A stretch of DNA of 45,689 nt from the NCBI GenBank assembly GCA_032718475.1, contig JAUCBJ010001333.1, positions 1-45,689 on the forward strand, read 5' to 3'. Position numbers and translations under genes: made by a program. The notes beneath the pieces are model-generated. The model had not been told where the DNA came from. It saw only the letters and a list, made by a program, of their open reading frames with translations, and made no database searches. The stretch comes from Nemertoderma westbladi. Its lineage: Eukaryota > Animalia > Xenacoelomorpha. Every line of letters begins with the position of its first letter. The stretch's first letter is position 1. Shown here piece by piece: positions 3,825-45,317 of this stretch.

Positions 3825-3862
3825 TATTTATTAAATTCTGATTTATTAATTTTATTCTGCAG

Positions 3863-22140: not shown

Positions 22141-22539
22141 TGTTTCTTAGGAAAATCTTTTCGTATAAAATAATATATTCTGATCTATTTTTTATTTGTA
22201 TTTTTTACATTTAATTTTTACTAATTTTTTGTTCTATTCCGTATAATGAATATCGTGGTATTGTAAGATATACACACATAAGGGAATATACACATCACCT
22301 ATACAAGGTTTAATAATAATCCTAACCGTACGAACGACAAACGTCAGATACTGTGTAAATTACAGGTACCTGTAGTGTTAACACCGGTACTACCTGCAGT
22401 AAATCATTGAAAAATTGTTGCTAGGATAATTAAATAGCGGCATATTTAAGGGGGGGGGGGGGGGGGGGGGGGGGTGGGGGTGGCGCTACTTCAATAATTT
22501 TTTGCAAAATTTTTTTATTTCATCTAGAGCAGATTTTTA

Positions 22540-22930: not shown

Positions 22931-24412
22931 GCGGGAAGGTTCAAACTTTAAAGGCAATTTATCTCGGAATGGAATTTTTTCATTCCTGCGAAATTAAAAA
23001 TGTTACTCTTCTGCCAACTTTTAATATTTTTTGATGAAATTTGGACACAGTAATCACAAGCTTGGTTTGGTGTCTTCAAACGTATTGGACAGAATCTCAA
23101 AATTTTGATCCTAACTCATTTTACTGGCTTCGAAATATGGAAAATTCTAATTTTTTGAAAAAAAAAATTAAAATAATTAATTAATTTGGTAATAAAATGT
23201 GAAATAATCAATATCATAAAAATTTTACCAATAATTTTATTCAACACTATATCCTAATTATGTATACGAAATAACTAGTTATATAACTAATGTTTGTTCG
23301 AAGAGTGTTTTTTAGTGTTTGCCAGGGGTTACTCGCTTTACTGTATATATTGTTATCGTAATAAATTGATGTTTTTATCCTTTGTTCCAATCAAATTTAC
23401 TTTCAACTACCCCTGGTTGTTGCTAGGGAAATGGTACTTTGTTGCGATGAAAACTTTTTCCCTGTTTAAATTGTTATACTAATCAAGTTATTATCAACGG
23501 GATTGTTTCTTTATGGCGAGTTTAATAATAGATGAGACCAAATTCACCCGGTTGATATTAAAATGTCACCAATGTAGCTAGGGAACTAGTCAATTATTTT
23601 ACTACACAGGGTCAGTTTAATCTACCTACTGTATAGTGACATTTTTCTGCTTTTGTCCTGTAATTAACGACTTATCCGTGTTTTAGTCTTAAGCGACGAT
23701 ACGAAGATGAATTCGGTATAAACTCTTACTACATACAGCACCCTCTACCGCTGTAGAGATAAACATTAAAGTATGATTTGTGAATTCTCTAATTGACGAT
23801 AGATGGCGAGCTATTATCGCCTAGCAACATAATATACAATTTATAATACATATGTATTTCAAACTGTAGGCTTATGTCAATAACCAAACCTAGGCAATGC
23901 ATACTGTAATGTATTAATTAAGATTATAAAATTTTGAAAGAATCAGTTTTTGCACGTTTATTTACCTTTAGGAATAAATTAATAAACGATATGTGCGGAA
24001 TATATAAACGTTTTTATTTTCATTTAATCTGTTAATAATACGTTATTTATTGGGTCTCAACAGTACGTAGTTACCGTTACTGTAAATAGGCCTATACTAT
24101 AAAATGTGATACTGCATCCCATAGCCTAGTCAAAATAGGCCCAGTCCAGTCTTAGATAAATTGCAACACACTGTACTAGTAGTTTTTCGTAGTTTTTCTA
24201 GTTTTAACGGTAGTTGTTATATTTATTAGTTATTTAGGTTATATTTAACACCCTATCCCAAATCACCCCATAATTCGGATTGTAAACACACCATGGCAAC
24301 ATAATAGTCTGACAACGATAATCTATCTTTGACCTAGCCCCCATAGACCCCCCCCCCCCCCACCCCCCCCCTCCCCCCCCTTGACTCACTAGAGAATACG
24401 TTTTTAAACACG

Positions 24413-24425
24413 GTTACCGGGCAAC
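24413..24425. promoter_or_regulatory. RFX X-box upstream of HYDIN
   Basis: GTTACCGGGCAAC fits GTNRCC-N(0-3)-RGYAAC. Weaker matches lie at 22417, 23419, 23816 and 24289. Confidence 0.5.
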
Positions 24426-25041
24426 TGCCATTATTAATTTAAATGGCGCCACTGCTAAAAATCAATGCTTATTGTAAGCATTATTTCAAATTGTATTATA
24501 AAGTAAATTTGAACAATCCGATTGTGGCCTGTTTTGGGAATGTTGTTAATCATAAAATGTTGGCTAATAAAAAGTTATTTCAGTACTGTGAGTGTCTTAC
24601 TTTAAGTCTTATTTGGTTCTATTGAAAAATATCGTGAGTAAAAGTATCGCGAATTTAAAAAAACATAGCGAGTAAAAATTATGCGAATTCAATAATCGAG
24701 AGCAAAAATATTGCCAGCATATTTTAAGCTGTCTCTCAACCAAATTTATTTTTATTTTCATAATATGTATCAATTGTAAGGAAGGGTCACTTTTTAATCT
24801 TAACAATAAAATGCAAAAAAATAATATATTGTAATAAGTTTTTTTCATTATACAGTAACAATTACATTTTAATTTCTTTCATTATAAATGTTATGTTTGT
24901 TTTGAATATTGAATTAGAACCCCTGGTAATAATCGCTTATGTACTGATATATATCACGACTTGCATATTGAAAACATTCTAAATTTCTACTGGCAATATT
25001 TAACTCGCGATTTTATTTAACTGTGATCATCACCTAAACTA

Positions 25042-25278
25042 GGCTGGGTGCAATCTTCGTCCAATAAGATTTGTGTTAGTAACCTTTTTAGTACAGTAAT
25101 AAATAAATTGAGGGATAGGAGCAGGTTACAGAGACGACTTTTTCTAACCAAAACAATAATTGTTTATTGGGCGAAGGTTGCTCGCGGGCGAAGATTGCCT
25201 GCGGGCGAAGGTTTCCGCCGGGCGATAGTTACTCATTTTGAGGGCGAAGATTGCTCCGGGCGAAGTTTGCTGCGTACC
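25042..25278. mobile_element. Mutator-like MITE with a 9-bp TSD
   Basis: cctaaacta at 25033-25041 and 25279-25287, GG...CC termini, six gggcgaag-like subterminal repeats, and one inverted copy at the left end. Confidence 0.7.
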
Positions 25279-25702
25279 CCTAAACTATAGATACGACCCG
25301 CCAAGCTGCTGCAAATCCCTTAAATTTAGTTATTTCTCTTAGATAGAACCCCTGAAACAATAGGTCTAGCTCGTCGAAAGTACTTGGCCCTAAATAAAAT
25401 AATGTCCTCTTTCAGATGATACAAATAAAAATGTAATAATAGCTCCAGTAGTTTTTGAGATATTAAGAATTTCTGGCACCCATATTTTTTCCTCACGATA
25501 TTTTTACTCGCGATATTGTTACACAATTACCACGTATTTCTGTACTGTCGGCATCTTGGTAGGTTATATATTGTCATTAATCAACCTAATTATATTATAA
25601 TCAAATAATATTTATATTCATTTACCGTTATTCTTGATTTATTCATAAATTATATACTTAATGATGGAGTGAAAAACTTGATTTTAAGCACAAAACGTGA
25701 CA

Positions 25703-28700
25703 ATGATTAACGTGCGAGTGAACAGCCCTCCCAGAGGCCCACTCACAGAGAGATCTCAAATTCCTAAACATCCCGCTATACAGGATGGGGTGAGAGCCAA
25801 GAGTGGAAATCCGGCTGGCACACGGATGAAAAGGAATAAGGCCCCGCGCAATCCTAGATTAGTAAACCCCGCGAAGTTGGAAGGTTTATCGGAAGTCAAA
25901 CTCAAACCATCGGTATACATGCAGAGGCAACTAATGACCACTGAACAACTACTCAATTCAACTGTTGAGGTGCAAGTCACTAAAATTATTCAACTCTTGG
26001 ATATTGGTCAAAAATCCTTTCAAAAATTGTGTTCATTACCTCTTGAGAGTTGCCTCTTTCAACCATTCCCGTCTGAGGTGACATTCCAGCACTGCCAACC
26101 TTGTCAACCATACCAGGTCGGGTTGCAGCTACGCAATATGGACCACGTTCCAAGATTAGTTAAAGTCAATTGTGAAGATTCGTCTTATTTCAAGATCGTT
26201 AGACCTCCTCATGCCGGAGATAAGGTAGCTCCAGGAATGGCTGTCACTTATAAAATTGTCTTTATAGGCGATGAATCCAAAGACTACTATTATGAAGTTG
26301 AAGTTTTTACTGAACGTGAACTTTTTATTGTACCAGTTCGAGTAATTGGCCCCCGAGCGATACTAGACTTTCCTGATGATGTTGATATGTTAATGTGCCC
26401 TGTGAAACACACAACAACCAGAACATTGCTGATACGAAACTTGGGAAACAGGGAAGCCAGGTTTAATGTCGAGTCGCATTTACCTTTTCAGGTTGAGCCA
26501 GCCTCTGCTACTCTAGATGTTGGGCACTGTATGCAGGTAAACGTTGCTTTCCATCCTCTCAACACTGGCGAACATACCACTTATATCATTGTCCATTATG
26601 ACACTGGTGAAGATGTATACATGAAGGTTTTTGCTTCAGCCAGTGATGCTAATATCCGCATAGATAAGTCGACAATTCATATGCCTAAAACATATATTGG
26701 TTTGAGAAGTGAAAGATTTTTCAGCATCTCCAATAGAAGTGATATTATTGTAAACTTTCAATGGAAGCGTTATGAAACAGAAGCTGAGGAAGATGCTGAG
26801 ATAAATCAAGTTGTGAGTAGTTTACACAAAGCTTTAAGCAGGGATAATCTTGACTCCGAAAACGAAGAAGACAAGCTTTTTACGGAAAGGCAACGTATAA
26901 AACAATTAACTCCAAGTAAGGATGATTTCGCCTTTCTGGACAATGAGTATTCTATCACTCCTATCAATGGTGAGATATGGCCTGGCCAATCTGCTGAATG
27001 TAGCATTGTATTTCAACCAGAGGTGGTTGTTGAATCAAATCTTGCCGCTTGGTTGGATGTGTCAGGCGTGGAGAAGAGACTAGGTGTCAAGATATATGGT
27101 GAGGGTGTCGGTCCATGGTGTGAGTTGAGTTATGATGAATTGGATGTTGGTTATGTGTTTATGAATTCATCTTCTTCTTATGAGATTATCCTAAAAAATC
27201 GAGGTCAGATAGATGCGTATTATAGAATTCTATCTGACAACTCATTCTGTCAGTTTTCTCCTGAGGAGAATCCAGTTAATGCCGGAGGGTATCAGGCAAT
27301 TCAATTAATGGTTTGCTCTCCAGTAATTGGCGTCTTTAAAGAAGAATTTTTCTTCGAAATAAACGACAGTCCTGACAAACTGAGATTATCTGTTACAGGG
27401 ACAATCGCTGGGCCTACATTTAATTTTGATGTCAGTGAAATCAATTTTGGAAACGTTGCTTTTGGATTTCCACAAACTAAGGTTTTTGAACTTACAAATA
27501 CATCGTATATTCCAATGAATTTTGAGCTAAGAGTCCCTACAGATGGTAGTGATGTTGTGGCTGTTGAAGCAGAAAGTGATGAGGCAGTTTGGAATTATAA
27601 TATAGACCCATTCACTAAACCGAAAGAGTTTACCATTATTCCAGATAGTGGAACTTTAGCCCCAATGGATTCGTGCCCAGTTACTATAACTATGTTGAGC
27701 AATACGGCAAAAAAATATGTGAATGACACACTAGTTGTCAGAATTGTTGATATGGCACAAGACGTTGCCTTGCTGCCTATTAAATGTCGTTGTTATGTCC
27801 CAGAATTATATATTACAAACCCAATTATAGAATATGGGAAATGTTTTATGCATTCTCCAACTGCGGGATTTCTTACCATTACTAACCCAACCGAATTTCC
27901 TGCTAAATACAACTTAATTGAGCAAAGCCATATGGAGTCATCAATGATTCTTTACGAATCTTCCGCCCCAAGTGGTATTATTGCAGCAAATTCCTCCTTT
28001 GATCTTCCAATTACAATTAGAGCACAATTGAAGGACCACCTACAGGTTGGGGCATATTTGTCTACATTTGGTTCACCAGATCGACCAATGCAAGTTATCC
28101 TTAGGGCATTTGGTCTAGGTCCCGTCGTGTTTGTAGCATCAAATGAATTGGATTATGGTACTATTCCTGTGCTCACAGAAGCCATCAAACGAGTAACCCT
28201 TGAGAACGAATCACCCATAGCTGCTACCTATACCTGTTTTTTAATGCAAAGCACAAATTCCGTGTTTTCAGTGTATCCTGCCCAAGGAATATTACATCCC
28301 AAGTCAACCCTGCAGATAAACGTTGTTTGTTTTATTAATGACGACATTAAATGCAAAGATCAATTAAAAATAGTGTTTGTGGATGGGTTAACCCATGTTA
28401 TCCCATTGTATGCAAAAGGAATTGGGACCACTATTGAGATCACCCCGAAGTTAGTCCCTTCTTATGACTTGGGGCCCCAATTCAGTACTTTACCAATTAA
28501 AAATGAACTACTTATAAAGAATTCTGGCAGAAGAGCGCAATGTCTTATATTCAAAACTAAAGGATATTCATTATCTAAGACTTCGCAAGTGACTATGGAC
28601 CCATTTGATATTAAGAAATCTGAAAGTGGTGTTTCTTTATCACCAACATTTGCTATAAACCCATGCCGCATAGAATTACAACCAGGGGAATCGATTACTG

Positions 28701-31700
28701 CTTACCTTGAGGGGTATTGTAAAGAACTAAAGTGCGTCAAGGAAACAATAACCTGTGATACAATTTTTGAAGGTAAAGGGCCCAAAAAAACAATCATGAA
28801 TATAGATGTTTTAGCTGAATTTGTTGAACCATGCGTGCAACTGTCGCATCAGTTTATTAATTTTCGAATTGATTGCTGTTTAGGTGAGGTTCCACAATTG
28901 CAAACAATGTCCCTTGCCATCACTAACATTACCCCACTGCCCCTGCATATGACACTAGATATATGTCATCCATTTTATTTTAAAGTTGATAAGGATTTAG
29001 TGAATATTGTTAATGTTTCTGCTGATCCAGCAAACTTTGCTAGTGTTTGTGTTGCATTTGATTCAGATTATGTTCAGGACAGACATTGTCGAATTGCGAA
29101 AGGTTTGCTAACTATAAAGTACAGAGGTAATCCTACAATTCATACAATTGATGTTACTGGCGAAGTCAATTTTCCTAATATCGAGTTTTCTACAAAAAGT
29201 ATTGATTTTGGTAGCATTCTTAATAATACGGAGTCTACTGCCGTTCTAAGAATGACAAATAATTCTCCTGTAGATGTCAAGTTTGCATGGACGTTTTTAG
29301 ATCCGGTGAAAATTAGTTACTTTCAAAAGCCTCAAAACCTGATGGATACTGATAACATGGATACCATTGACCATGGAGTAAGCAGTGGTGATAATTTTGT
29401 TGATATCGATACTGTGGACAATTGTGATGTAGAACCAGAACTTCAGGTAGAAGAAAATCTTGCAGAAGAAATAAGAGTGTATGGAGGTAATGATGGGGGC
29501 CTTAATTTGGGTATTCCTATTGAGGAAATTGATGATAATTTATCTCAGAATGATAACATAGGTGTGAATTTTGAAGGTGATAATAATACTGGAGAAATTG
29601 CAAATGATTTTCTTGCAAATGATGGCAATTTGTTGAGTACTTCTGAGGAAAGAGAGAGTACAGCAATGCCACATGATAGTGATGAAATTATTGATTCTGA
29701 TCCACAGATAACCAACGTTCTTAATGTTGATGAAGTATTTGATATTTTACCAATGTTTGGTAGATTGGCTCCATCAGAAGCCATGACCTCTGTAGTCACC
29801 TTTTATGGTCACCCAGAAATCCAGGCAGAATCGACAGCTATTTGCAGTGTGGAGGGTGGTCCAGATTATAACATCACTCTATGTGGAACTGCTTCTAGCA
29901 TGGGATTTGAAATTGACCATTTTGAACACGATTTTGGCAAAGTAAGGTTTGATGAACAATGCTCTGCTGAATTTTTGATATTTAATAAAGGTAAAGTACC
30001 ATTACCTTTCAATGTTCTCACTCAAAACTTTGCTGAATCTGGAATAACAAATATTTTACCTAGCGTAGGGATTATTGATGTTGAGGCTAATGAGGTTGTG
30101 ATTAGAATAACACTAATACCTGGAATTCCTGAATACTTTCGCGTTACCATTAAACTTCAAGTTGCCCATTTTGAACCTTGTGAATTAATTATGTTTGGCA
30201 TTGGAACATTTCCTAATATTAAGTTAAACATTCCACGGCAGTATGACAGTGACAATGCAACTCTATGTGAACTGAAAAATAGTATATCTAAGAGATTTGA
30301 AGGTGACAAAGTTGTGAAAAATAGTATTAAAGGAGCTTTAGATAATTTGCTTATGCCAGGGATTAAAGAATCTTGTGTTGTTGAAGATCCCCCATATAGT
30401 TTACATGATGAAGTTGAAAATCTTTTAGTGAAACAATATGCAGAAAATCCAGAACATACTTCCCTCAGTGAAGTTGTATTTCCTGATTATATTATAGAAT
30501 TTGGGTATGTCATACTTGGAGATGTTAAGTCGCAATTAGTTACATTACAAAATGACGGTTATTTACCTGTGTCGTTTTCAACTGATAAATCAGCATTGGA
30601 ATCAAGTGGATTTACTGCCAACATTAGCCGTGTTAAGGGTTTGCCCGGATTCCCATCTTGTGGCACCCATGAATTTATTGTGAAATTTGACCCTCGTTGT
30701 GCTAACCTTCAGGAAGGCTATGTGGAAGTGTCTATGTTGTTTAACCTTACTAATGGCCCCACAATACGATTAATTATGAAAGCAACTGTTACATCCCCAT
30801 GTTTAAGTATAGCACAACCTTACTCAGACTTTGGTTCTGTTCTATGTGGACAGTGTAAAATTGTGACTATGCAGTTATGCAATAATGAATCGGTTGCATG
30901 TGAATGGGAGGTTATCTATCCCCCTGGTCCCCGCATAAAGATTGATAAACATTTACCAATGCACTTGAAACCAAAACAAAAACCGTTTAAGCTTAATATG
31001 AAGACTTTTGAGCTATTGCCAAGTAAAGGAGTTATTTTTCCTGGTGCAAAAATGAATGTGCAAATTAAATTTATGCCAACTGAAGAAAAAGTTTATGATG
31101 TGAAATTACCTATCAGAGTTGATTGCAGTGCCCAGATTGTTGGTATACGACTTAGTGGGACAGGTATTGAACCAAAACTCATATTTTCTTCAACTAATTT
31201 AACATTTGGCCCTGTTCTCCCATTTTCTGAGGGACAATATTTAAGTATTTCTGTCAAAAATCCCACAGCTCATCCAATCGAGTTTTATTCTCTTGAATTT
31301 GATAAGCAGTACTTAGAAGAAGAAAAAATATTGCGAATGATGACTGGTTATGACTCATACAATAACATTATCTTGCCACCACGAGTTCCTGGTGAGTCTT
31401 TGCCATCAGAGCTGTTAGAATTTTTTATGCTATTCAAACAAAAACAAGCAGAACTAAGTAAGGTGCAAGAATGGAAAGATCGCTCTGCCAGTGCACTGGC
31501 AGACAGTTCAGTCCATGATGATAGAACTCTTTCTGCCACATCTAGTAGTAAAAGTTCTAAGGAAATAATGGCACGGGGTTCTGGTAGGAAAATATCTCCT
31601 GCTCCTCCTACTGTCTCATACCCTCAAACTGAACAACAACCTACAACTATAGAAAGAATTGAAGCTTCTGAATTAGAGTATGTTCCTGCAGTACTTGAAG

Positions 31701-34700
31701 AAGATGCTGAGAAGGAAATTCCTGCTGAGGTTGGATATGCAACTCCCTTGTCTGGTGACAAATTACAAAGTCGTGACACAAACACCAAAGAAAATGGTGT
31801 AAGGGCACCTGAGGTTTCTATACCTGGGACTGGCAGAGAAAGTGCTATTGACAAAGTCACAGGCATTGGACAGTTGGAAATGACCCCTGTTTCGGCTTCC
31901 ATTGCCAAATACTTGGGAATTGATTTGTCACCAGAAGGTAAGGCAGCTGAGCTCAGACGAGGCGTAGCCATTATTGTTAATGGAGGCCCACTATCGGGGA
32001 AAACACAAATGTCTGTTGAGCTCGGGAAGCGCTACTCAGCTAATGTTCTTACTATAGATGATATTATTTTAGAAGCCATTATATCTAAATATGAAACTCC
32101 AAGTGGCAGCCAGGCACTTGAAATATGTGCTGCTGCTGCAACACAATATAAGGGAGAACAAGATGCAGAGGCTCTTGCTGATGTAATAAATGACACTGCT
32201 GATATGCATCTTCCAGCAACCAAACAACTTAAAGGTGCAGCTGAGGTCCATTATGAACAGCCATCAAAGCAGCATAAGATGGTTACTGAAATTCAGAATG
32301 TTGAGAAACATAAGGATACATCCCGTATTCAAACACCTGTTGAAGTTCCTCAACTACCACCTTTGCCATTTGGTAAAATAATTGAATTTGATGACCCCAA
32401 AGTCGCTAAAGATGGGCTCCGAACTACCCACCTTCCTGAACATGTAATTGTCCAGATTTTGGCAGAAAGATTTCAGGCAGCTGATTGTTTTAATGGCATT
32501 ATTATTGATGGCCTTAAATCATGGTTTTGTCCTACAATTTCAACGTCGGCTATGTATATTTTAAAAGCATTTAACAATCGAAAATATTTGTATATAGTGT
32601 CTTTGAAAAGGGATTTTGAATCTTTACAGGCTTATGAAAATAACAAAAAACGTGAAGCAGAATTAGCAGATATTGAATATGAAAGACTAACTCGTCAAGC
32701 TATACATGATCTATCTGAAGATTGTTATGATAATCTTACAGATGACCAAAAGTCCATTATAGATAACAAACAACTTGCAATAAACAAAGAAAGATTACGC
32801 CTAGAGCATGAGAAGCTAGAGAGGGAGAAAAAACAAAGAGAATTAGAAGCACTGATTAAAGCTCAAAAACTGGAAGAGGAAAGACTGGCAAAGAAACGAG
32901 GCAAAAAGGTTGCTTTATCTAGTAAGCCTCGTGGTACTGGTGAAGAAGCTATTGCTGAGCAAAGGAAAGGAAAGCATGATGATGATCATGAGAACATTAA
33001 GAGGAAAAAGGGCAACAAAACATTTACAACTGATGTCGTTGAAGAAGTTGAAGAACCGCAGCTTACAGAATCTGAAATACACTTACATCAACTCTATAAG
33101 GAGTTTAATACAGGTTTTAAAGAAATAATGAAAGTTTCTGATCGCTGGAATAGGGTAGAGTTGTCTGTTAACCGACCATTGACTCCAGTCGAGTACAGAC
33201 AGCCGGATGATACTAATAAATTTTCAAAGAAAAAAGGAAAGGTAAAGGGTAAGGCTGTTGAACATGATATTGACAAAGGCAAGGACAGTAAAGAACTTAA
33301 GGATAGTTTGCCAATAGATAATCCAACAGAGACTCCTACAGACGGTGAAAGACCTGATGATGGTGATGGTTTTGTAAACATTGGGATTCCACATATAGTA
33401 GTTAACATGAATAATTCATGTGCAGATATAATTTCTAAATTCTTTGAAACCAATCTGCTGCCTGATTCTGATGAAGTTTTGGAGGGCTTGGGATTAGGTC
33501 CCGATGGCCCACCAGTACCCCCTCCAGCAACTTTCAGTATGGTCCCATTTCCTGTGAAACGTACAATGTCAGACATTGCTGAAAGTAGCAAGTTTACATT
33601 TGTTGCTGCACACAGTAATGATTTAAACATATATCCAGGAGCTAAACAGCCTCCTACTCCAGAACCAGAATTTGAAGAAAATCGTTCAGTAACAGCTACA
33701 CCTCCAAAGTCAAAAGGAAAACGTCAGGAAAAGCGTGCTCACTCTGTGACAAAGGATAAAAAACCACGGCGAAGTTCTTCCATTGTAACCAGTGCTTCTA
33801 AGAAAGAACCCGAGATTGATGAGCCGCCTGTGGAAATACATCAACGTGATATACATGATGGGAAGCCGAAGCCACTTCAATACTACAGGTGGATAGTTAA
33901 TGCTGATTCAGAAATTTCTCTTAAATTGCATTTCTCATCCATTGAAAGAGGCACATTTGATCAAACATATAATTTTGAATTAGTTGGAACAAGACGTAAA
34001 TATCAGTTGCATTCCAGGGGTATTTGTTCATTTCCAAATATCAGCACAGAACCAAGAGTGCTCTACCCTGCAAGGAAAAGAACACAAAAGGAAGGCGATA
34101 TAGTTAAAAAGAAATTTATTGGAGACACAAATACATTTGAGTTTGGGCCCTTAATAATCGGGAAGAGTCGAGATAAGTATATTGATGGTGTATTTCCAGA
34201 AAATGTGGCTAATTTGACAATATTTAACAACTCTCCTCTGCTTTCAGAGATTACATTTTGTTTCAAGAATGACACTAACTCAACAACTTTTATGTTACAT
34301 CCTGTAAGTATGTTAATTCCAAGTAATGAAAGAACGGAATTGAAAGTTTGGGCATATCCAAAAACGGTTGGTAGATTCACAGATGAAATTATAGGCTGCA
34401 TTCGTGATAACCCAGAACCAGTAGTCATTTCGATTTCTTGTGATGGTGTTCAGCCACGATTGGAATTGCCATCCAAGATTATAAACTTTGAAAAAGTTCT
34501 GATCCACAGACGAGAAACCAAGACTCTTATATTTCGGAATGTCACATTATTGCCAGTTGGTTGGAAATTAATTGGAGTGGATCAGATGCGTGATGAGTTT
34601 TCTTTAGATCATGAGCAGGGAGTGGTCGAACCTCTTTCAGATTTTACTCTGAATGCACATTATAGGTCTACCAAACCAGCCATTATAAAACGAAACTTGA

Positions 34701-37700
34701 AATTAGAGGTGTTTGATACTGAGAGAATTTTGGGTACAATTCAGACCGAAACGTTGCAGATAATTGGTGAGGCATATGATGTTTCTGTAGACATACAATT
34801 TAATAAGACACCAGATGGTTGTTTAGATTTTGGTACTATAAAAGTTGGAGATGAGGCGAAGAACACTCTTACTATAAAAAACAAGGGAAAATATGAAGTT
34901 ATGTATCATTTACATGTTATACCTGGTGGGAAGCAATGGCCCGATCTTCGCAAGGTTTTCAATGTGTCTCCTGCGAAAGCAACATTAAATCCAGCAGACA
35001 GGCCATTAACAATTACTATTAGTTTTCATTCAATAAATGAGCTTCTCTTTTCCAATGATCCCATTCTTCAATGCACTATAATAGAACCCAGCATAAATGG
35101 TGGTGTAGAAATAGCACGAATACCAATAAAAATTAGCGCCAAATCAGTCTTTAGTAAATATCAAATTAGTCCTCTAAGTGATATTAACTTTGGACCTGTT
35201 CAATTACATACAAAGTTACAAAAAACACTTACTATTGAGAACAAGGGGTGTTTCGAATTTAAATATTTGATTACCAGAGTTCAGAAAGAGGATATTCATA
35301 AGGATGACAAAAAACGAAACTTAAAGTCTGATACCACTAAAACCAAAAGCCAATCCAAATCAGCAACTGGCAAAACAAAACGATCTGAAACTGGAAGTCG
35401 TGCGGAGGGTCCAGGTCCGGTTCAAACTCGTCTTATTTTAGATACGTTTACCATTTACCCAGCTCATGGAACAGTGGTACCTGGAAATACCCAGCAGATA
35501 CAGATTGAATTCTCAGCTGATCAGTCTGGTGAATGTTTGGAGAACCTGATGATTGATATCCTAGATCGTGATCCCGCTGATAATGCGAAAGGCATTCCCT
35601 ACAAACTATTAGCTGAATCCTTTGTACCTGGAATCAATGTTTCTGATTATGGTTTGATATATGACGAGCATATGCTATGCACAAATTTCAGTGCTTGGAT
35701 AGCCAGCCAGTCTACTGCGCTGCAATCAAAGACTAATGATTTGAGTGATGCAGAAAATGTCTCCACTGTTTTTCTTCTAGAGGAAAATCGTTTCATGTTT
35801 ACAAATATTATAGTTGGATATTCTGCTACTGCTCGATTTCGCATATCAAACCCGTATAAAGTTCCTGTTGATGTGGCATTTGTTATAAAGAATCAAAATA
35901 TCCCAGGTATCAGAGAAGGGGCGAAGTCGTCTCGACAACAACAGGTCGCATCACAAGATGCTTTTGATTTGCAGCCTTCAAGAGCTAATATATCAGCACA
36001 TAGCCATATATATGTAACTGTGACCTTTTCACCTTCAATTATAATGAACTATAATGCTACTTTTGAAACAAGTATTGAAGGTATTTCCACCTCTTTGCAA
36101 AAATCACGAAATCTTACTTTCAACATATCTGGGGAAGGGAGCATGCCTAGAGTTAAGGTTGTTAACCCAACAACAAGGACTTCACAAAGTGCACCTCTCT
36201 TGAGGTACTCAAAACTTGCTATTGGTCGGAATGAATCGCATATTGTAACATTGGAAAATATTGGACAGTTACCTTCTAAAATATCCTTGGATATATTTGA
36301 TGAGGATTCAGCTTTTCGAATAATTTTGCCTGATACAATTCGCTCTTTAGAAACAAGCGTTAGTCAACATTGTGCCGTTTTCCAGTTATCAAGTGGAACT
36401 CAGATAACATTTAATGTCATTTTTGAACCCAAGAATGTTGGAAAATATCATGCTAAAATAAAGGTATCTGTTGAAGATAATTTCTTTGAGGATGTGGAGA
36501 TACTGTGTTTGGGAGATGCATTTGATGATGTTCTCCTTATTGAGGAAATACATCTTCCCATAAATTTTGCATTGCCACAAGAAAATGAAGATGTTTTAAA
36601 GATTACTTCAGACATAGAGGCACTCCCATCCAATTTTTTAAATTTTGGCATGGTGTATTTCAATTCAGTAATGCAAGCCACTTTTACCATTTCCAATACC
36701 TCTGATAAAAACTTTAAATTTTCTGCACCTTCATTATCATATTTGACTTTTTCTCCAAGTATTGGACATTTACATTCACATTGCAGGAAGGATATAACTG
36801 TAACTGTCAACTACAACAAACCCATAAACCTGAGATATGAAGCTATCCCCTTTGATTTTATTGAATTAGAATATGACCAGCCCTTGGACGAAGTTGAAGA
36901 CTGGGACGACAGAAAGTGTGTTGTGAAATGGATAGATATTGATGTGCCCGCTGAGCCTTCTGTAGCCAGTAAAACATCATCAAGGAAAAAAGTTGCAATT
37001 GAGAAACAAAAAGTGGATGTTTCGAATACTGCACTTGCTGTTAAGAGACCCACTAAAAGGAAGGTGTTGGAGATTGATCAAGAACCAAAACACAACACTG
37101 CTGAAGATACCCGAAGAGATTTGGATTTATCAATTTCCTTGCTTATGGATTACTGTAAATATAGACTGAGGGCTGAGTCCAGCATTCAGTTTAAAGATAC
37201 TCTCATGTTTATGACTCGAGTTTACGAGTTTGATATGGAGAATATTGGGTCAATGGTTATTGATTATACTTGGACAGTTGTATTAGACAAGTTAAAATAT
37301 AAACGTTGCGAAAGCAGTGCCGAGTCTATTAATACATTAACGCCGCGGACAGTGCAATTTAATCATCCCCCAATAACCCCAAGGCTGGAACCAATGTCAT
37401 CTAAGATTCAAACTCTGCCAACATCTCGAGCGCAATCGTCCTGTTCATCAGTAAAGGACCTTTCACTATGTCAAGATGAATACCCGATATCAGAAGAACA
37501 CATATCTGAAATACAATCTCCTTTTACCATTGAGCCCGAATATGGTTTTATTGGGCCTGGAAAGAAACAACGATTTAAGTTAATGTTCTCACCAGTTGAT
37601 GTTACTGAATATTCCGCACAGCTATTGTGTTCCATACCAAATCTTGAAGTTGGTGATCAGCAACCAATGATATCATTAAAAGCACTTTCCCTGTTACCGT

Positions 37701-40700
37701 ATTGCCATTTTCAATTAGAAGAATCGGATTATTTGGATGGGCGTCGTGATCCTGAGTTACGTGGCCCTAATGAGCAACCTTTGGATTGTAACACTCGAGT
37801 TATAGAGTTCAAATGTGTTGGCGTTGGTCAAACAGTTGTACGAACTTTTAACATTAGAAATCCTTGTAAATATCCATTAAAATTTGTTTGGAATCACACT
37901 GACGGACAGAAGTCTCAAGTTCATTTTCGCTGTCTCACTGCGAATGGTACAATAGGACCTGGAAAAGAACAAGCTGTTAGCTTGGAATTTCAGTCGTCCA
38001 TTATTGGAATTGTGGAATCCTTTTGGATGTTCAGAATAATTGCTCATGGAATTGATGTACCGTTTCTTTTAGTTGGTGACACTATTGAACCTTTAATCGC
38101 ATTTGATCGTTTGTATTTAAATTTCAAGAATCTGCTTGTGGGCAGAAAATTCTCAGAAACAATATACATCACAAACAGTGAAGACACGCCTTTTAATTTC
38201 TCATTTGATCAAGATACCTTGTATTCTGCGGCCCATGATGTCCAAATCGAGGCACTACCTCTGAAGGGAACAGTTTTACCGAGATCCAAGTTCGCCGTAG
38301 AACTTTATTTGACGACGATCAGGGATGAAGAAGTGATATTTCATGTCAAAGCAAAAGTTCAACACAAACCATCGCCACTGAGGATCACTGTGAAAGCCCA
38401 GGGTTATTCACTAACTTCACAATTGCTTATAGTGGATGGAGATAATACCATTGAATTAGGCCACAATTCCATTGAGGAACTCAATCTTGGTAAAGTGGAA
38501 GTGAAGGACAATGTTTTTAGGTATTTTCAGATCGTCAACACTTGTCCTTATACACTCACATACAATTGGTCCATAGATAATGCTCCTAAAGGGATCACTA
38601 TGACACCAATGAGTGGATTCGTTACCGCAGACAAACATACTCAGTGTGAATTAAATTTTATTCCAACTAAAGTTTGCGAACTCAATGGCTCCAATTTGAA
38701 ACTTGCTATAGTTAACGGGCCTGTTTATCATATAGCATTAATTGGCCAATCTGTGGCACCTTTGCTGAAATTGTCTTTCTCTAAGTATGATTTTGGTTTT
38801 ACATTTGTTTATCAAGCGGGCATGAAGGTGAAGTCTAAGGAATTGGAGATAACAAACAGCGACGATAAGGACATAAGTATTGAATGTCTCTCCACTGAGA
38901 GTGATTATTTGAAGTTTAAATTCGAACCAATATTACTTTCCCCTGGCAAAAGTGTAAAAATGTTGTTAAAGTTCTACCCTCGGCAACCAATACGGTATTG
39001 TGAAACATTGTCATTTTTGGTTAATGGATTGACTGCAATTGATGTCCAAGTGTCTGGCAGTGGCTGTAAGTTCGCGGTAGAAATAGCTAATGGCAAACAG
39101 CGGTTGCGCAATATAGGAACTCTTAGAACAGGTCAAATATCTACACGTTCCCTGTCAATAGTCAATAGGTCGCCAACACCTGCTAGTTTTAATTTAATTT
39201 GCACCCCAGTTACCCAAGGTCTGTTAGCACCCGGGGTGTTAAACATTGCACCAAGTAGGGTTAATATTCCTGCGAAGGGAGGGGTGGCAGAGGTGCAGAT
39301 ACGATTCGCACCTAAATCCAGGATCGTTCAATTTGTTGAAGAAGTAATGCTCGAGATGGAGGATAATTACACAACGCCTCTGTTCGCCGTGACTGGGGCC
39401 TGTCAAGGAATCGAAGTCTCTTTGGATACATCGAGTATAGCGTTTGGTCCAGTGATGTTGCGCTCTCAATGTTCTAGAAAACTATTGATCTCAAATTCTG
39501 GAGATATGGGTACCGCTTTCCACTGGAACCCCGCCAATTTCGCTCCAGATTTCTCGATGTCGCCCAGCAACGGGTATCTTTCTCCAGGAATGAGTGTAAC
39601 ATTGCGGGTGATGTTCCACCCAGTTCGTGAGAACGCTGACATTCGATATGAGAACTTATACTGCGCGATAGAGGGCGCTAAACCTTTACATCTCATGTTA
39701 ACAGGAATGTGTATTGGACATCCACCTGTGCGAGAAGTGTTATCCTTCACTACAAACGTTCGCGATCCTATTATACGTAAAGTTAACATAACCAATACGA
39801 GTGTCCACGGCATAAAACCGTGGCTTCTCCAGCCTGTCATAGAAGGCGAGTATTTCTCTGGTGACGATACAATATCTATAGCAACAGGAGAAACTGAAAC
39901 TTACGAGATCACCTACTTACCATTGGAGATGACAAAGCAAGACAAACCGCATTCTGGTTCGTTGTTCGTGCCACTGCCCACGGGAACCGGGTTGCTATAC
40001 CAACTGGTCGGATTATCTGGCGAACCGAAACCAATAGCAACTGTAGTTAGGGACATCCCTTGCAAGACCGCTTACGTAGAGGTACTTCAGGTGCCTAACT
40101 GGTTGACCAATCGGCAACGTTTTAAGGTTGTTCGTGAACTCATTAAGCCTGAACGGTTGGAGCAGACTGTTAAACTTGAAGGCCTGGAGCACATACAGGT
40201 GCCAGCTCTCGGAGAAGCCAAATACAACTTGTCCTTCTTCTCATATCGTGAAACTTCACTTCATTTCAAGTTATTTTTTGTCAATGAGAGTAATGGGGAG
40301 TATTGTTTCTATGTTATCACCCTGCATGCTACACCACCTGGTGTGCTTGAAGCCTTTGAAATTCAGTGTCCAGTGAGAAAAACTAAAACACAAACTATAT
40401 CGTTGGAGAACCCAACTGCCTCAACAGTAACTTTTAATTGTCAGACACCCCTTCAGGAAGTTATGCTCCCGTCTTCATTTCAAATCCCGGCCATGACGTC
40501 CGTTCCATTAACCGTCGAATTCCAACCACTTCGAGTGGTGGAACAGGTCGGGAAGTTGTACCTGAACTGCAACGAACTCGGACTCTATACCTACCAGCTG
40601 AGTCTACAAGGTACCGCTCCAGCCAATGAGAAAGCGACGCACTTCCGGTGCGGACTTGGTTCCTCGCAATCTCAACAGGTTCACTTCCACAACTTATTTA

Positions 40701-41236
40701 AGAGCAAAACTGAATTTTCCTGTAAAGTCTTGCAGCAAAATCCGAACGATAAACCGGAATTTCTTGTTGATAAAACGGTGACGGGAGCTGGAAGTAGCGG
40801 GGCTAGTGGAACCGAGATCTCGTTGGATGTTCTATACGAACCAACCATGAAAGGAAACACTCGGGCCCATCTATTGGTCCAATCACCTCAGGCGGGGGAT
40901 TTTAATTTCGCTTTATTCGGGATTTGTACCGAATCTCCACCGCAAGGCCCTTTCCTAGTAAAACTCGGACATACGACCGCGGTCCCGGTAAAGAACATAT
41001 TCCACTCGACGCAGCACTTTACCTTTACAACTCAACCCGATTGCTTCGCCGTGAAGGGAAGCAGCGCCGAAGGTATCAGAGCCAAAAAAATTCATTACGT
41101 GAACATTTCATTCGATTCCACCGATAGAACTGCGACGAAGCTCGGGACTCTCACGGCTACCTGCGCCAAGTCCACCGACATTGGGGGGGACGTAGTAACC
41201 TGGGTCTACTACCTCAAAGGCGTCGTCGATAAATAA
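25703..41236 (+). CDS. HYDIN: Hydin (axonemal central-pair protein), ~5177 aa, encoded by a single uninterrupted ORF
   Basis: LFQPFPSEVTFQ..LRNMDHVPRLVKV start of the conserved region, many ASH/Ig-like repeats (FG..+..+.N), an adenylate-kinase-like P-loop GVAIIVNGGPLSGKT at ~31961-32005 followed by coiled coil, and the C-terminus WVYYLKG. The first ATG is at 25703 (the track starts at GTG 25697). Confidence 0.96.
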   Translation: MINVRVNSPPRGPLTERSQIPKHPAIQDGVRAKSGNPAGTRMKRNKAPRNPRLVNPAKLEGLSEVKLKPSVYMQRQLMTTEQLLNSTVEVQVTKIIQLLDIGQKSFQKLCSLPLESCLFQPFPSEVTFQHCQPCQPYQVGLQLRNMDHVPRLVKVNCEDSSYFKIVRPPHAGDKVAPGMAVTYKIVFIGDESKDYYYEVEVFTERELFIVPVRVIGPRAILDFPDDVDMLMCPVKHTTTRTLLIRNLGNREARFNVESHLPFQVEPASATLDVGHCMQVNVAFHPLNTGEHTTYIIVHYDTGEDVYMKVFASASDANIRIDKSTIHMPKTYIGLRSERFFSISNRSDIIVNFQWKRYETEAEEDAEINQVVSSLHKALSRDNLDSENEEDKLFTERQRIKQLTPSKDDFAFLDNEYSITPINGEIWPGQSAECSIVFQPEVVVESNLAAWLDVSGVEKRLGVKIYGEGVGPWCELSYDELDVGYVFMNSSSSYEIILKNRGQIDAYYRILSDNSFCQFSPEENPVNAGGYQAIQLMVCSPVIGVFKEEFFFEINDSPDKLRLSVTGTIAGPTFNFDVSEINFGNVAFGFPQTKVFELTNTSYIPMNFELRVPTDGSDVVAVEAESDEAVWNYNIDPFTKPKEFTIIPDSGTLAPMDSCPVTITMLSNTAKKYVNDTLVVRIVDMAQDVALLPIKCRCYVPELYITNPIIEYGKCFMHSPTAGFLTITNPTEFPAKYNLIEQSHMESSMILYESSAPSGIIAANSSFDLPITIRAQLKDHLQVGAYLSTFGSPDRPMQVILRAFGLGPVVFVASNELDYGTIPVLTEAIKRVTLENESPIAATYTCFLMQSTNSVFSVYPAQGILHPKSTLQINVVCFINDDIKCKDQLKIVFVDGLTHVIPLYAKGIGTTIEITPKLVPSYDLGPQFSTLPIKNELLIKNSGRRAQCLIFKTKGYSLSKTSQVTMDPFDIKKSESGVSLSPTFAINPCRIELQPGESITAYLEGYCKELKCVKETITCDTIFEGKGPKKTIMNIDVLAEFVEPCVQLSHQFINFRIDCCLGEVPQLQTMSLAITNITPLPLHMTLDICHPFYFKVDKDLVNIVNVSADPANFASVCVAFDSDYVQDRHCRIAKGLLTIKYRGNPTIHTIDVTGEVNFPNIEFSTKSIDFGSILNNTESTAVLRMTNNSPVDVKFAWTFLDPVKISYFQKPQNLMDTDNMDTIDHGVSSGDNFVDIDTVDNCDVEPELQVEENLAEEIRVYGGNDGGLNLGIPIEEIDDNLSQNDNIGVNFEGDNNTGEIANDFLANDGNLLSTSEERESTAMPHDSDEIIDSDPQITNVLNVDEVFDILPMFGRLAPSEAMTSVVTFYGHPEIQAESTAICSVEGGPDYNITLCGTASSMGFEIDHFEHDFGKVRFDEQCSAEFLIFNKGKVPLPFNVLTQNFAESGITNILPSVGIIDVEANEVVIRITLIPGIPEYFRVTIKLQVAHFEPCELIMFGIGTFPNIKLNIPRQYDSDNATLCELKNSISKRFEGDKVVKNSIKGALDNLLMPGIKESCVVEDPPYSLHDEVENLLVKQYAENPEHTSLSEVVFPDYIIEFGYVILGDVKSQLVTLQNDGYLPVSFSTDKSALESSGFTANISRVKGLPGFPSCGTHEFIVKFDPRCANLQEGYVEVSMLFNLTNGPTIRLIMKATVTSPCLSIAQPYSDFGSVLCGQCKIVTMQLCNNESVACEWEVIYPPGPRIKIDKHLPMHLKPKQKPFKLNMKTFELLPSKGVIFPGAKMNVQIKFMPTEEKVYDVKLPIRVDCSAQIVGIRLSGTGIEPKLIFSSTNLTFGPVLPFSEGQYLSISVKNPTAHPIEFYSLEFDKQYLEEEKILRMMTGYDSYNNIILPPRVPGESLPSELLEFFMLFKQKQAELSKVQEWKDRSASALADSSVHDDRTLSATSSSKSSKEIMARGSGRKISPAPPTVSYPQTEQQPTTIERIEASELEYVPAVLEEDAEKEIPAEVGYATPLSGDKLQSRDTNTKENGVRAPEVSIPGTGRESAIDKVTGIGQLEMTPVSASIAKYLGIDLSPEGKAAELRRGVAIIVNGGPLSGKTQMSVELGKRYSANVLTIDDIILEAIISKYETPSGSQALEICAAAATQYKGEQDAEALADVINDTADMHLPATKQLKGAAEVHYEQPSKQHKMVTEIQNVEKHKDTSRIQTPVEVPQLPPLPFGKIIEFDDPKVAKDGLRTTHLPEHVIVQILAERFQAADCFNGIIIDGLKSWFCPTISTSAMYILKAFNNRKYLYIVSLKRDFESLQAYENNKKREAELADIEYERLTRQAIHDLSEDCYDNLTDDQKSIIDNKQLAINKERLRLEHEKLEREKKQRELEALIKAQKLEEERLAKKRGKKVALSSKPRGTGEEAIAEQRKGKHDDDHENIKRKKGNKTFTTDVVEEVEEPQLTESEIHLHQLYKEFNTGFKEIMKVSDRWNRVELSVNRPLTPVEYRQPDDTNKFSKKKGKVKGKAVEHDIDKGKDSKELKDSLPIDNPTETPTDGERPDDGDGFVNIGIPHIVVNMNNSCADIISKFFETNLLPDSDEVLEGLGLGPDGPPVPPPATFSMVPFPVKRTMSDIAESSKFTFVAAHSNDLNIYPGAKQPPTPEPEFEENRSVTATPPKSKGKRQEKRAHSVTKDKKPRRSSSIVTSASKKEPEIDEPPVEIHQRDIHDGKPKPLQYYRWIVNADSEISLKLHFSSIERGTFDQTYNFELVGTRRKYQLHSRGICSFPNISTEPRVLYPARKRTQKEGDIVKKKFIGDTNTFEFGPLIIGKSRDKYIDGVFPENVANLTIFNNSPLLSEITFCFKNDTNSTTFMLHPVSMLIPSNERTELKVWAYPKTVGRFTDEIIGCIRDNPEPVVISISCDGVQPRLELPSKIINFEKVLIHRRETKTLIFRNVTLLPVGWKLIGVDQMRDEFSLDHEQGVVEPLSDFTLNAHYRSTKPAIIKRNLKLEVFDTERILGTIQTETLQIIGEAYDVSVDIQFNKTPDGCLDFGTIKVGDEAKNTLTIKNKGKYEVMYHLHVIPGGKQWPDLRKVFNVSPAKATLNPADRPLTITISFHSINELLFSNDPILQCTIIEPSINGGVEIARIPIKISAKSVFSKYQISPLSDINFGPVQLHTKLQKTLTIENKGCFEFKYLITRVQKEDIHKDDKKRNLKSDTTKTKSQSKSATGKTKRSETGSRAEGPGPVQTRLILDTFTIYPAHGTVVPGNTQQIQIEFSADQSGECLENLMIDILDRDPADNAKGIPYKLLAESFVPGINVSDYGLIYDEHMLCTNFSAWIASQSTALQSKTNDLSDAENVSTVFLLEENRFMFTNIIVGYSATARFRISNPYKVPVDVAFVIKNQNIPGIREGAKSSRQQQVASQDAFDLQPSRANISAHSHIYVTVTFSPSIIMNYNATFETSIEGISTSLQKSRNLTFNISGEGSMPRVKVVNPTTRTSQSAPLLRYSKLAIGRNESHIVTLENIGQLPSKISLDIFDEDSAFRIILPDTIRSLETSVSQHCAVFQLSSGTQITFNVIFEPKNVGKYHAKIKVSVEDNFFEDVEILCLGDAFDDVLLIEEIHLPINFALPQENEDVLKITSDIEALPSNFLNFGMVYFNSVMQATFTISNTSDKNFKFSAPSLSYLTFSPSIGHLHSHCRKDITVTVNYNKPINLRYEAIPFDFIELEYDQPLDEVEDWDDRKCVVKWIDIDVPAEPSVASKTSSRKKVAIEKQKVDVSNTALAVKRPTKRKVLEIDQEPKHNTAEDTRRDLDLSISLLMDYCKYRLRAESSIQFKDTLMFMTRVYEFDMENIGSMVIDYTWTVVLDKLKYKRCESSAESINTLTPRTVQFNHPPITPRLEPMSSKIQTLPTSRAQSSCSSVKDLSLCQDEYPISEEHISEIQSPFTIEPEYGFIGPGKKQRFKLMFSPVDVTEYSAQLLCSIPNLEVGDQQPMISLKALSLLPYCHFQLEESDYLDGRRDPELRGPNEQPLDCNTRVIEFKCVGVGQTVVRTFNIRNPCKYPLKFVWNHTDGQKSQVHFRCLTANGTIGPGKEQAVSLEFQSSIIGIVESFWMFRIIAHGIDVPFLLVGDTIEPLIAFDRLYLNFKNLLVGRKFSETIYITNSEDTPFNFSFDQDTLYSAAHDVQIEALPLKGTVLPRSKFAVELYLTTIRDEEVIFHVKAKVQHKPSPLRITVKAQGYSLTSQLLIVDGDNTIELGHNSIEELNLGKVEVKDNVFRYFQIVNTCPYTLTYNWSIDNAPKGITMTPMSGFVTADKHTQCELNFIPTKVCELNGSNLKLAIVNGPVYHIALIGQSVAPLLKLSFSKYDFGFTFVYQAGMKVKSKELEITNSDDKDISIECLSTESDYLKFKFEPILLSPGKSVKMLLKFYPRQPIRYCETLSFLVNGLTAIDVQVSGSGCKFAVEIANGKQRLRNIGTLRTGQISTRSLSIVNRSPTPASFNLICTPVTQGLLAPGVLNIAPSRVNIPAKGGVAEVQIRFAPKSRIVQFVEEVMLEMEDNYTTPLFAVTGACQGIEVSLDTSSIAFGPVMLRSQCSRKLLISNSGDMGTAFHWNPANFAPDFSMSPSNGYLSPGMSVTLRVMFHPVRENADIRYENLYCAIEGAKPLHLMLTGMCIGHPPVREVLSFTTNVRDPIIRKVNITNTSVHGIKPWLLQPVIEGEYFSGDDTISIATGETETYEITYLPLEMTKQDKPHSGSLFVPLPTGTGLLYQLVGLSGEPKPIATVVRDIPCKTAYVEVLQVPNWLTNRQRFKVVRELIKPERLEQTVKLEGLEHIQVPALGEAKYNLSFFSYRETSLHFKLFFVNESNGEYCFYVITLHATPPGVLEAFEIQCPVRKTKTQTISLENPTASTVTFNCQTPLQEVMLPSSFQIPAMTSVPLTVEFQPLRVVEQVGKLYLNCNELGLYTYQLSLQGTAPANEKATHFRCGLGSSQSQQVHFHNLFKSKTEFSCKVLQQNPNDKPEFLVDKTVTGAGSSGASGTEISLDVLYEPTMKGNTRAHLLVQSPQAGDFNFALFGICTESPPQGPFLVKLGHTTAVPVKNIFHSTQHFTFTTQPDCFAVKGSSAEGIRAKKIHYVNISFDSTDRTATKLGTLTATCAKSTDIGGDVVTWVYYLKGVVDK

Positions 41237-41491
41237 CTTAGTTTGTTCTTTTATTTTGGAAATATGAGGCATATAGTGTGGGAAATGCGGATAAAACAAA
41301 TAGTCGCGAAGTTGTTGCTCGGGTGTTGGGGCCTTCAACATTATGCTGCAACAAAAACATCCAGCCTAAATTAACAAACAATCTACCAAATTTAATCATT
41401 CCGTCTAGTCTTAGGTTAATAATGATTATTGCAACCATTGAACGTGATAATTAATTAAATAATATATATACTGAAATGTACCCATTTACTA

Positions 41492-41497
41492 AATAAA
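41492..41497 (+). terminator. Candidate HYDIN polyadenylation signal
   Basis: AATAAA ~255 nt after the stop, followed by T-rich sequence. The AT-rich context makes a chance match possible. Confidence 0.35.
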
Positions 41498-42199
41498 TTA
41501 TATTTATTTTACTTTCGGTTTTATACTGTGCTGTTAGTCCGTTTTCCACATTTAGTTTCCTGTAAATATTTTATTAATTTGTATCATACCGGTTTGGTTT
41601 CTTATTAAATAATTGTTTGATTATATTACTACGTTATTATTCTGACATTCCCTCATTATAATTTTTTAATTTGTATAAGTTTGAAGTTCTTGCACGTATC
41701 AAAAACATGACATGAAAAAAATAAGAAAAAATTATTAAGATTGTGCAGATAATAACCAAATGTGCATTGGCTTCCACGTGGGATCGAACTGGTGACTTTT
41801 AGGTTGGGATTCTAGGGTCTCACCATTCCCATGGCAGCGAACCTTTATTATGTTTGATATGATAATACCAACAGATGCACAGTAGATAATTAAATAGTCA
41901 TTTGCCACTAAATATATCTCAACTATAATAGTCATTTAACCAAGGATAAATTAATTTTCCGCTATAGAGATATTGAATGCTGAGGTCAAACAAGCATCAA
42001 ACGCGATATCATAGAGAGTGTAAGACTAATTCAGCGATAATTATTGTTAATATCCACCCAGCTATAGGGCTGAAGTTACTGCATAGCTTGACACGTTCGT
42101 GGAGCCTTCGCGCAGCACAAGGCTGCATATGCACGAAGTTAGGTTTAATTTCATCAATGATTGACCGCTACTAACTAGTGCTATTTAAATTAAATGTGA

Positions 42200-43861: not shown

Positions 43862-45120
43862 TCAGCCATATTGCGTGGCGATTTCGTTGCCACGCAGCCC
43901 GGCTCCATCTCCGAAACCTAGACCCCGCCAAGATCGCCGTCCTCCGCGGAGACACAGGGAGCTAGACCGGAGAAGGGCGAATCGAAGGCGCCGTCTCACT
44001 CCACCCAGGACACTTGCGAGGCCCCTCTCGCGCATGCGGTCACGTTTAGCCACCAAGACCTCGGCAATGTTGCGTATCAAGATCTGGCCCTCTTGGCACC
44101 AGACACCATCGGTTCCTACGAGGGGGGAGAAGGACATCCTCCTTTCCTCACATACTGTATGGTAGTGGCGCTTTTTAAAGCGACCCCATTCATCCAGCAG
44201 AGGTTCGGTGGATCGGTTGTTGTGGACATAGGAGTGGGCGTCAGCGTGAATGACCGCGATGTCAAACGACGCCACCCTCTGTGGTGTCCATATTCCCCTG
44301 CCCGAACTCCCCCAACTTCGATCCCGGCGCTGTCTAGGTGGCCACGTGATAGGGTTACCTCCCGCTCTACACCCGATGGACCAATGGCAGACGAAAGAAG
44401 TTCACCAAACACTTCTTGAACCTCATCATGTCGTTTCACGATGAGCCCGCCTGACTTACAGCTCAGAGCGTGGGTTGTAGAAAACTCGCCTCCACAACCC
44501 TCACACCTTGCTGGAAGCCCGGGGGGGGGGGCAGGCCGTAACGTGGCGCGAGATTGTCGCGGAATTCCTCAGCGCTGAGGTCTGTGTGATCGATAATCGA
44601 AGGCTGGGCAGTCAACCAACCCCCTGTACGGTTGTGCACCGTGCGATCGTATTGGATTGCTTCCCGGGTGAGTATCTTCCTCATCAACAACGTGCCTTGA
44701 CTCATCGTTGTCACTCTCTGACGACTTGGTAGTATCAAGCATCTCTACGTATAGCTGGGACTCACCAACCCCTGGCAAATCGCGGAGGTTGCGGATTAGT
44801 GGCAACACAGCACAGCCATATCCCATTATTGCCGCGGGGTCGCCCTGAGTCCAACCCTCGCGACTCCATAATGGTTGGTCGCACCCATGAACATAGAGGG
44901 CGGCATGACCGTTGTAGGAGTTGAAGAGGAATCGCGATGCACGGTGCCAAAGGACACGGCAATTCCACAGTGCAGTTGGACGACTGATGGAATTAAATGC
45001 GTTCTTCGCGTCCACTAGTAGCATTCCCTCAGACTCGACATCATTGAAGGCAATGTTCTTGGCATAAACTGCCCCCTCTATGCCTGCCTTCACACCAGCA
45101 CAGAGTTGAGACCAGCACAC
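43862..45120 (-). mobile_element. Degenerate, internally deleted CRE-clade-like non-LTR retrotransposon (RT, zinc knuckle, restriction-like endonuclease)
   Basis: QLCAGVKAGIEGAV, LVDAKNAFNSISR, EGWTQGDP, GGWLT..LSAEEFRD, RHDEV and FDIAV...K.RHY...FSPLV in shifting frames. The YxDD segment is missing. Confidence 0.85.
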
Positions 45121-45317
45121 ATTAATTCAGTATTGTTATTGTTGTATTAATTATTGTGTTAAAATTAATTTAGATAATATCAATTATAATTTACCCCGAT
45201 TGGGGGTGTATCTATAAAAAAAATAATTATTTTACTTTTTGCCGCGAAATTAATGCCATCGTAAGATTAAGAGTAAATATTAATTAGCCGTTCACATCTG
45301 GTAACAATATGTTTCAG

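Follow-up and report, generated by a model that had tools for sequence, protein, structure and literature searches.

The stretch of DNA analysed in this study, contig JAUCBJ010001333.1 (45,689 nt, referred to below as the window), carries a complete HYDIN gene with its entire coding sequence in one exon, at positions 25703-41236 of the plus strand. Both the open reading frame (ORF) listing and inspection of the sequence place the first ATG at 25703, from which the frame continues through 5177 codons to its stop codon; the listing reports a single ORF of 5179 codons (25697-41236, plus strand) within a stop-to-stop interval of 25688-41236. The five alternative frames of these 15,534 bases contain between 164 and 564 stops, with a longest open run of 209 codons, and the probability of 5177 stop-free codons, as estimated from base composition, is ~1e-155. 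Tandem Repeats Finder called 25 arrays in the window, none of which is located within 25523-41236, and the frame exhibits a flat, single-copy depth among contigs from public runs, whereas both flanks consist of high-copy repeats with depths in the thousands. Nothing repetitive therefore breaks the frame, in agreement with an initial annotation of this DNA, which had described ~5177 codons without a stop and without a satellite or transposable element inside.

Judged from its sequence, the deduced protein is HYDIN proper and is nearer to HYDIN than to the CFAP47 and CFAP65 families. A Pfam search identified the Hydin_ADK domain (PF17213; E=1.9e-29) in the middle of the protein, where residues 2089-2271 match profile positions 1-196 of 196, as well as dozens of Ig domains of the HYDIN/VesB/CFAP65 and ASH types in both protein halves. 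The long chain of ASH/MSP-type Ig domains extends over about 5100 residues and is collinear with HYDIN orthologues from end to end. Comparison with the PDB returned HYDIN chains with the highest scores (9ijj_4G, 3027 bits; 7sqc_F0, 1711 bits; 7n6g_1J, 1272 bits), while the scores of paralogues were far lower (FAP65, 81 bits; FAP47, 75 bits; CFAP65, 69 bits). An identity as CFAP47 or CFAP65, at no more than 81 bits versus up to 3027 bits for HYDIN chains, was thus ruled out. A word-index search retrieved 219 proteins; among the best 120 of these, all named proteins are HYDIN, with 33-39% identity and a coverage of up to 100%. With the last 1200 residues as query, an exhaustive HMMER search of representatives of about 15 billion proteins identified 2661 relatives, none of which exceeds 41% identity, and the named relatives of this C-terminal part range from sharks, frogs and molluscs through to chytrid fungi.

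To compare the window protein with its relatives over its full length, an alignment of 13 taxa was used for the assessment of collinearity and inserts. The aligned proteins are collinear from the start methionine, with the conserved motifs APRNPRLV and FQPFPSE, as far as the motif WVYYLKGV at the C-terminus, and the identity is 30-46% in each 500-residue bin. Eight inserts, each of 9-23 residues, are present only in the window protein, which also shows seven deletions of 8-19 residues. Since the alignment is collinear and the inserts are small, the whole coding sequence is contained in one exon, and any hidden in-frame intron must be very short. In contrast, metagenome contigs hold two loci (L001 and L002) of another organism's HYDIN that is rich in introns. 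The exon-size matches at these loci comprise 42-129 residues with 28-65% identity to the window protein, and at L002 (2069-19100) residues 1485-2322 are split into at least 10 such matches over 17 kb.

The uninterrupted form of HYDIN is not peculiar to a single assembly, as contigs from three public runs belonging to two studies (X1, X2 and X3) carry this same form joined to the same flanks. Over 25488-42117, nine differences were counted in the X1 contig and 160, together with 17 gap letters, in the X2 contig; the X3 contig, which extends over 25519-41356, contains 141 differences and is free of gaps. Each of these HYDIN contigs overlaps the adjoining flank contigs, by which an assembly chimera and a stray cDNA were ruled out. 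No second HYDIN copy at a DNA identity of at least 80%, either with or without introns, was found in the contigs of X1 to X3, and all of the 23 depth bins of the ORF were at the single-contig baseline. The indels listed for X2 and X3 (at 41353, 41623 and 42003) are all located outside the ORF. Of the 232 differences, 40 were listed individually, and 36 of these lie inside the HYDIN frame, comprising 15 synonymous and 21 nonsynonymous differences; with a site ratio of 3.53, the ratio of nonsynonymous to synonymous polymorphism (pN/pS) was calculated to be ~0.40. The binomial probability of the synonymous excess was 0.007, 0.03 or 0.09 at an assumed synonymous share of 22, 26 or 30%, respectively. 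This partial sample of variants suggests that the HYDIN frame is under constraint, which is moderate only.

With regard to depth, the HYDIN-bearing contig exhibited values of 36 (X1) and 165 (X2), compared with 4-25 in the unique flanks, and of 26.6 compared with about 19 in X3, representing an excess over the unique flanks of 5-8 times in X1 and X2 and of 1.4 times in X3. The excess in X1 and X2 may be an averaging effect of a repeat at the contig end, or may indicate that these runs are not plain DNA. Contig depth was not used as a hint of expression, as the X1 and X2 contigs extend into the downstream repeat, by which their mean is possibly inflated, and as ranking by such depths is advised against.

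As to the origin of the intronless state, we lean towards the explanation that HYDIN is functional here and lost its introns through reverse-transcript-mediated loss, in the fast-evolving and generally intron-poor genome of a protostome, rather than representing a recent retrocopy in a host intron. Under this explanation, germ-line transcription of the gene is expected, as for sperm-flagellum genes, and its protein, by analogy with HYDIN in other organisms, would form the C2b projection of the ciliary central pair. The introns would then have been deleted precisely, either through repeated recombination between the gene and its own cDNA or through a single old event involving a full-length cDNA, along the lines of general models of cDNA-mediated intron loss.

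In favour of this explanation, just one further gene can be recognised in the window, and it, too, is contained at full length in a single exon. This synaptotagmin-like gene (18655-19974, minus strand; 439 codons) is positioned head-to-head with HYDIN at a distance of 5.7 kb, and its product combines a membrane helix at the N-terminus with a C2 domain (Pfam C2, 4.1e-8). A word-index search found no sequence relative of this protein; its nearest clusters in the Atlas are C2/synaptotagmin-13/20-like proteins of 429-445 aa, with scores of 0.94-0.96, and given the agreement between this length and the 439 codons, the whole synaptotagmin-like protein fits one exon. As two of two genes with a single exon would be unlikely in an intron-rich genome, we infer that the genome is probably intron-poor, and the presence of a second intronless gene next door favours a genome-wide habit over a one-off event. 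The initial annotation had envisaged that HYDIN is nested in a host gene with large repeat-filled introns. Such a host gene was not found: the complete single-exon gene is situated on the left side of HYDIN, and repeats together with a frameshifted reverse transcriptase (RT) element on the right side. No host exons were found on both sides of HYDIN in the window, although small, unrecognisable exons are possible. Of the mechanism proposed at that time, i.e. whole-gene intron loss or retroposition into a host intron, the absence of introns from the whole coding sequence stands, while the nesting and the host intron are not supported. Single-exon genes being routine throughout the lineage had been named as the finding that would overturn that proposal; the single-exon neighbour points in this direction, and two genes cannot settle the matter.

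The base composition of HYDIN is distinctive with respect to CpG. The ratio of observed to expected CpG was 0.50 over 27001-38900, which represents the HYDIN body, with a GpC control of about 0.96, versus 0.96 over the 3′-terminal 2.3 kb of HYDIN and 0.9-1.28 in intergenic DNA and the neighbouring gene. This composition suggests that HYDIN has long resided here as a transcribed unit, and one possible reading is long-standing gene-body methylation in the germ line. Transcription in the germ line, if the CpG deficit is read in this way, would be in keeping with a gene of the sperm flagellum and would provide the cDNA for intron loss. The G+C content at third codon positions (GC3) of HYDIN climbs from about 0.25 to 0.48 toward its 3′ end. 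Unlike HYDIN, the synaptotagmin-like gene exhibits a GC3 of 0.59 and a CpG ratio of 1.28.

To place the gene in a lineage, HYDIN trees were compared. FastTree with the LG model positioned the window HYDIN inside Metazoa, where it was paired with that of the acoel Symsagittifera, whereas IQ-TREE with the site-heterogeneous LG+C20 model, run as a quick search only, positioned it among long branches in a protostome clade with an SH-aLRT (Shimodaira-Hasegawa approximate likelihood ratio test) value of 100. The nearest entries in the latter tree by path length were Owenia, Lineus, Lingula and Tubulanus. As the acoel pairing dissolves under LG+C20, the link to Symsagittifera was taken as long-branch attraction, and an acoel affinity of the window HYDIN was set aside. 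According to these trees, the gene belongs to a fast-evolving animal, probably a protostome. For acoelomorph genomes, 3.3-6.4 exons per gene are given in a passage of PMC10565955, and passages of PMC12460157, which concerns a chaetognath genome, contain no sign of intron poverty; no tie between the window and either group was established.

Several observations weigh against loss of the introns in an intron-poor genome with HYDIN retained as a functional gene. The proposed intron poverty of the genome is based on two genes from one window. The copy test reached only copies of at least 80% DNA identity in the run contigs, and a diverged, intron-bearing second HYDIN is therefore possible. The pN/pS value is derived from 36 of the 232 differences, and a value of 0.4 is not indicative of strong constraint. 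Furthermore, the GC3 of HYDIN (0.32) equals the intergenic value, versus 0.59 in the neighbouring gene. The 23-residue insert at 29363-29431 encloses a stretch of 54 nt (GTAAGC...TAG) that is a candidate for a very short intron. Run X5, which originates from a third study, covers only 29182-29561 and 37737-41552 of HYDIN, and in its 3.8-kb contig two bases are missing at 38964 and a further one at 39305, which would introduce 12 stops into the frame. These frame breaks could be due to a broken allele, a 5′-truncated copy or a contig error.

The sequences that flank the frame are relevant to the question of retroposition. The ATG is separated from the high-copy repeat by a unique 5′ flank (25451-25702, plus strand), which is a candidate 5′ untranslated region (UTR) and core promoter and which shares the ORF contigs from 25488 onward; no X-box pattern was found within this interval. 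The unique 3′ flank (41237-41700, plus strand) is a candidate 3′ UTR of single-copy depth, with an AATAAA signal at 41492 and the haplotype indels at 41353 and 41623. It is followed, 465 nt past the stop codon, by an A-rich patch (41701-41735, plus strand) in which 22 of 30 bases are A (41701-41730). As its longest A run is seven bases, this patch does not represent a poly(A) tail, nor is it closely preceded by a polyadenylation signal. No poly(A) tail was found 3′ of HYDIN apart from this patch, and no target-site duplication was detected: the longest word common to both flanks comprises 11 bases, a length reached or exceeded in 64 of 200 shuffles. The absence of both marks, as had been reported in the initial annotation, was thus confirmed.

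Upstream of the unique 5′ flank, a repeat-rich stretch (24151-25450) exhibits 650-base depth bins that reach thousands and a contig depth of 1e3 to 1e5, compared with 26-165 in the ORF. It includes a poly-C run (24348-24380) and an interspersed high-copy repeat (~25100-25450) with a 17-bp tandem (25169-25225), between which low-depth unique sequence is present, as observed in contigs covering 24348-25146. The spacer between HYDIN and the synaptotagmin-like gene contains a run of ~31 G at 22450-22480 and, at 24348-24380, a run of ~33 C. On the other side of the gene, depth is in the thousands from 41701 onward, and a downstream repeat occupies 41750-42117. A piece at about 41770-41850 may be tRNA-like, i.e. 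similar to a short interspersed nuclear element (SINE), judging by a T-loop-like string recognised by eye. ARAGORN called no tRNA at this location or elsewhere in the window, and no Rfam match was obtained in the window; as ARAGORN calls no tRNA, the SINE label is a reading only.

We consider it possible, if doubtful, that the gene represents an ancient functional retrogene, for which a full-length HYDIN mRNA of ~16 kb would have been reverse-transcribed and inserted, either replacing a multi-exon parent or coexisting with a diverged one. Such an event would remove all coding introns at once, and the unique interval 25451-41700 resembles a UTR-coding sequence-UTR arrangement that is bounded by repeats and ends at the A-rich patch. 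RT remnants are present in the window, and the third-position GC of HYDIN equals the intergenic value, unlike that of the neighbouring gene. However, neither a poly(A) tail nor a target-site duplication accompanies the gene, and no parent was found at 80% identity or above in the contigs of X1 to X3. Retrocopies are, moreover, typically 5′-truncated and far shorter than 16 kb, and one retroposition event does not account for the neighbouring gene, which is also intronless. That a bilaterian replaced its many-exon HYDIN by a full-length retrocopy of ~16 kb is regarded as rather unlikely.

We judge it improbable that the gene is not fully intronless, owing to an intron in the 5′ UTR or to one or a few very short in-frame introns hidden by the open frame. 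Sequences that would be consistent with an intron in the 5′ UTR are GTGAGT, near 24590, and AG, at 25687-25688 and thus shortly before the ATG, and a palindromic X-box-like (RFX) site, GTTACCGGGCAAC, is present at 24413-24425, i.e. 1.29 kb upstream of the HYDIN ATG. However, such palindromes are common, with eight in the window versus 1.6 in shuffles, and the site at 24413 was for this reason rejected as a promoter mark. Within the frame, the 54-nt GTAAGC...TAG stretch is the sequence that would fit a hidden intron; against this, contigs of four runs span 29182-29561 without a skip, no matching joint was present among the joints listed, and the segments confined to the window protein are limited to the eight described above, of 9-23 residues. 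A decaying, non-functional processed copy, which the location amid repeats and satellites and the frame-breaking deletions in the X5 contig might suggest, is extremely improbable in view of the intact 5177-codon frame (chance ~1e-155), the lack of ORF indels across X1 to X3 despite indels in the 3′ flank, the excess of synonymous differences and the 30-46% identity kept in every 500-residue bin.

The remainder of the window is occupied by elements of other types. The initial annotation had described RT-encoding long interspersed nuclear elements (LINEs) as abundant nearby, but RT-like sequence was identified at two places only, both on the minus strand. The first is an RT fragment (11070-11462), which produced the sole Pfam RVT_1 match among the 32 ORFs of at least 70 aa that were scanned. 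It is flanked by satellites of 44 bp (73 copies, 99%; 7300-10526) and 48 bp (31 copies, 96%; 11731-13203), the latter array exhibiting a CpG ratio of 0.04. The second is a degraded retroelement (43865-45126), whose RT ORFs are split over three frames and match RTs with up to 67% identity. These relatives are mostly derived from metagenomes, with in addition a few bugs, a moth and a sponge, and no Pfam match was obtained for the ORFs of this element. A repeat search of the window reported just the 44-bp satellite and two hairpins. At 6008-6424, two nested inverted repeats with arms of 80-88 nt (94-97% complementary) are present, resembling a miniature inverted-repeat transposable element or hairpin. 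A Pro/Thr/Ser-rich open frame of 744 codons (3666-5897, plus strand) contains 36-bp and 21/63-bp tandem repeats and lacks a Pfam match. It may represent a mucin-like exon or a chance frame; as the strand is T-poor, long open frames arise by chance, and this frame was not counted as a gene.

Among conserved animal genes, HYDIN is one of the largest and one of the richest in exons, and the complete loss of its coding introns thus confronts models of intron loss with an extreme case. The protein belongs to a known family, and the novelty lies in the unusual gene structure rather than in a new kind of gene; no report of an intronless or retrogene HYDIN in animals was found in the literature searched. 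If the whole genome is intron-poor, this locus would be its most striking example and a curiosity of gene structure, whereas in an intron-rich genome it would represent an exceptional retrogene or cDNA-conversion event. Should replacement by a retrocopy be true, the gene would rank with the longest intact functional retrogenes recorded so far, which would show that reverse transcription in the germ line is able to copy an entire giant mRNA. The locus would also draw attention to a little-sampled protostome lineage, one not represented in protein databases, that would be worth annotating with regard to intron evolution, while a HYDIN gene with a single exon would allow easy cloning and editing for work on the central pair.

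Among known systems, processed retrogenes, i.e. LINE-mediated retrocopies, resemble the HYDIN locus in the absence of coding introns and in their repeat-rich surroundings, but differ from it in that this locus, at ~16 kb, displays no poly(A) tail, target-site duplication, detected parent or 5′ truncation. Chlamydomonas hydin (PDB 7sqc chain F0 and 7n6g chain 1J) belongs to the same family and, at 1711 and 1272 bits, is more distant from the window protein than its mammalian counterpart; it is described by Lechtreck and Witman (2007; PMC2063982) as a C2 projection protein of the central pair that is required for motility. Mammalian HYDIN (PDB 9ijj chain 4G), with 5154 aa compared with 5177 aa for the window protein, is similar in length, domain order, the Hydin_ADK insert and both termini, and its best-matching stretch covers residues 2051-4997, although mammalian and bird HYDINs show just 33-36% identity to the window protein among the matches listed. 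For human HYDIN, a passage of PMC11601013 gives 86 exons over 423 kb, which bears out the earlier statement that the vertebrate gene has many dozens of exons, whereas the coding sequence of the HYDIN gene described here occupies one.

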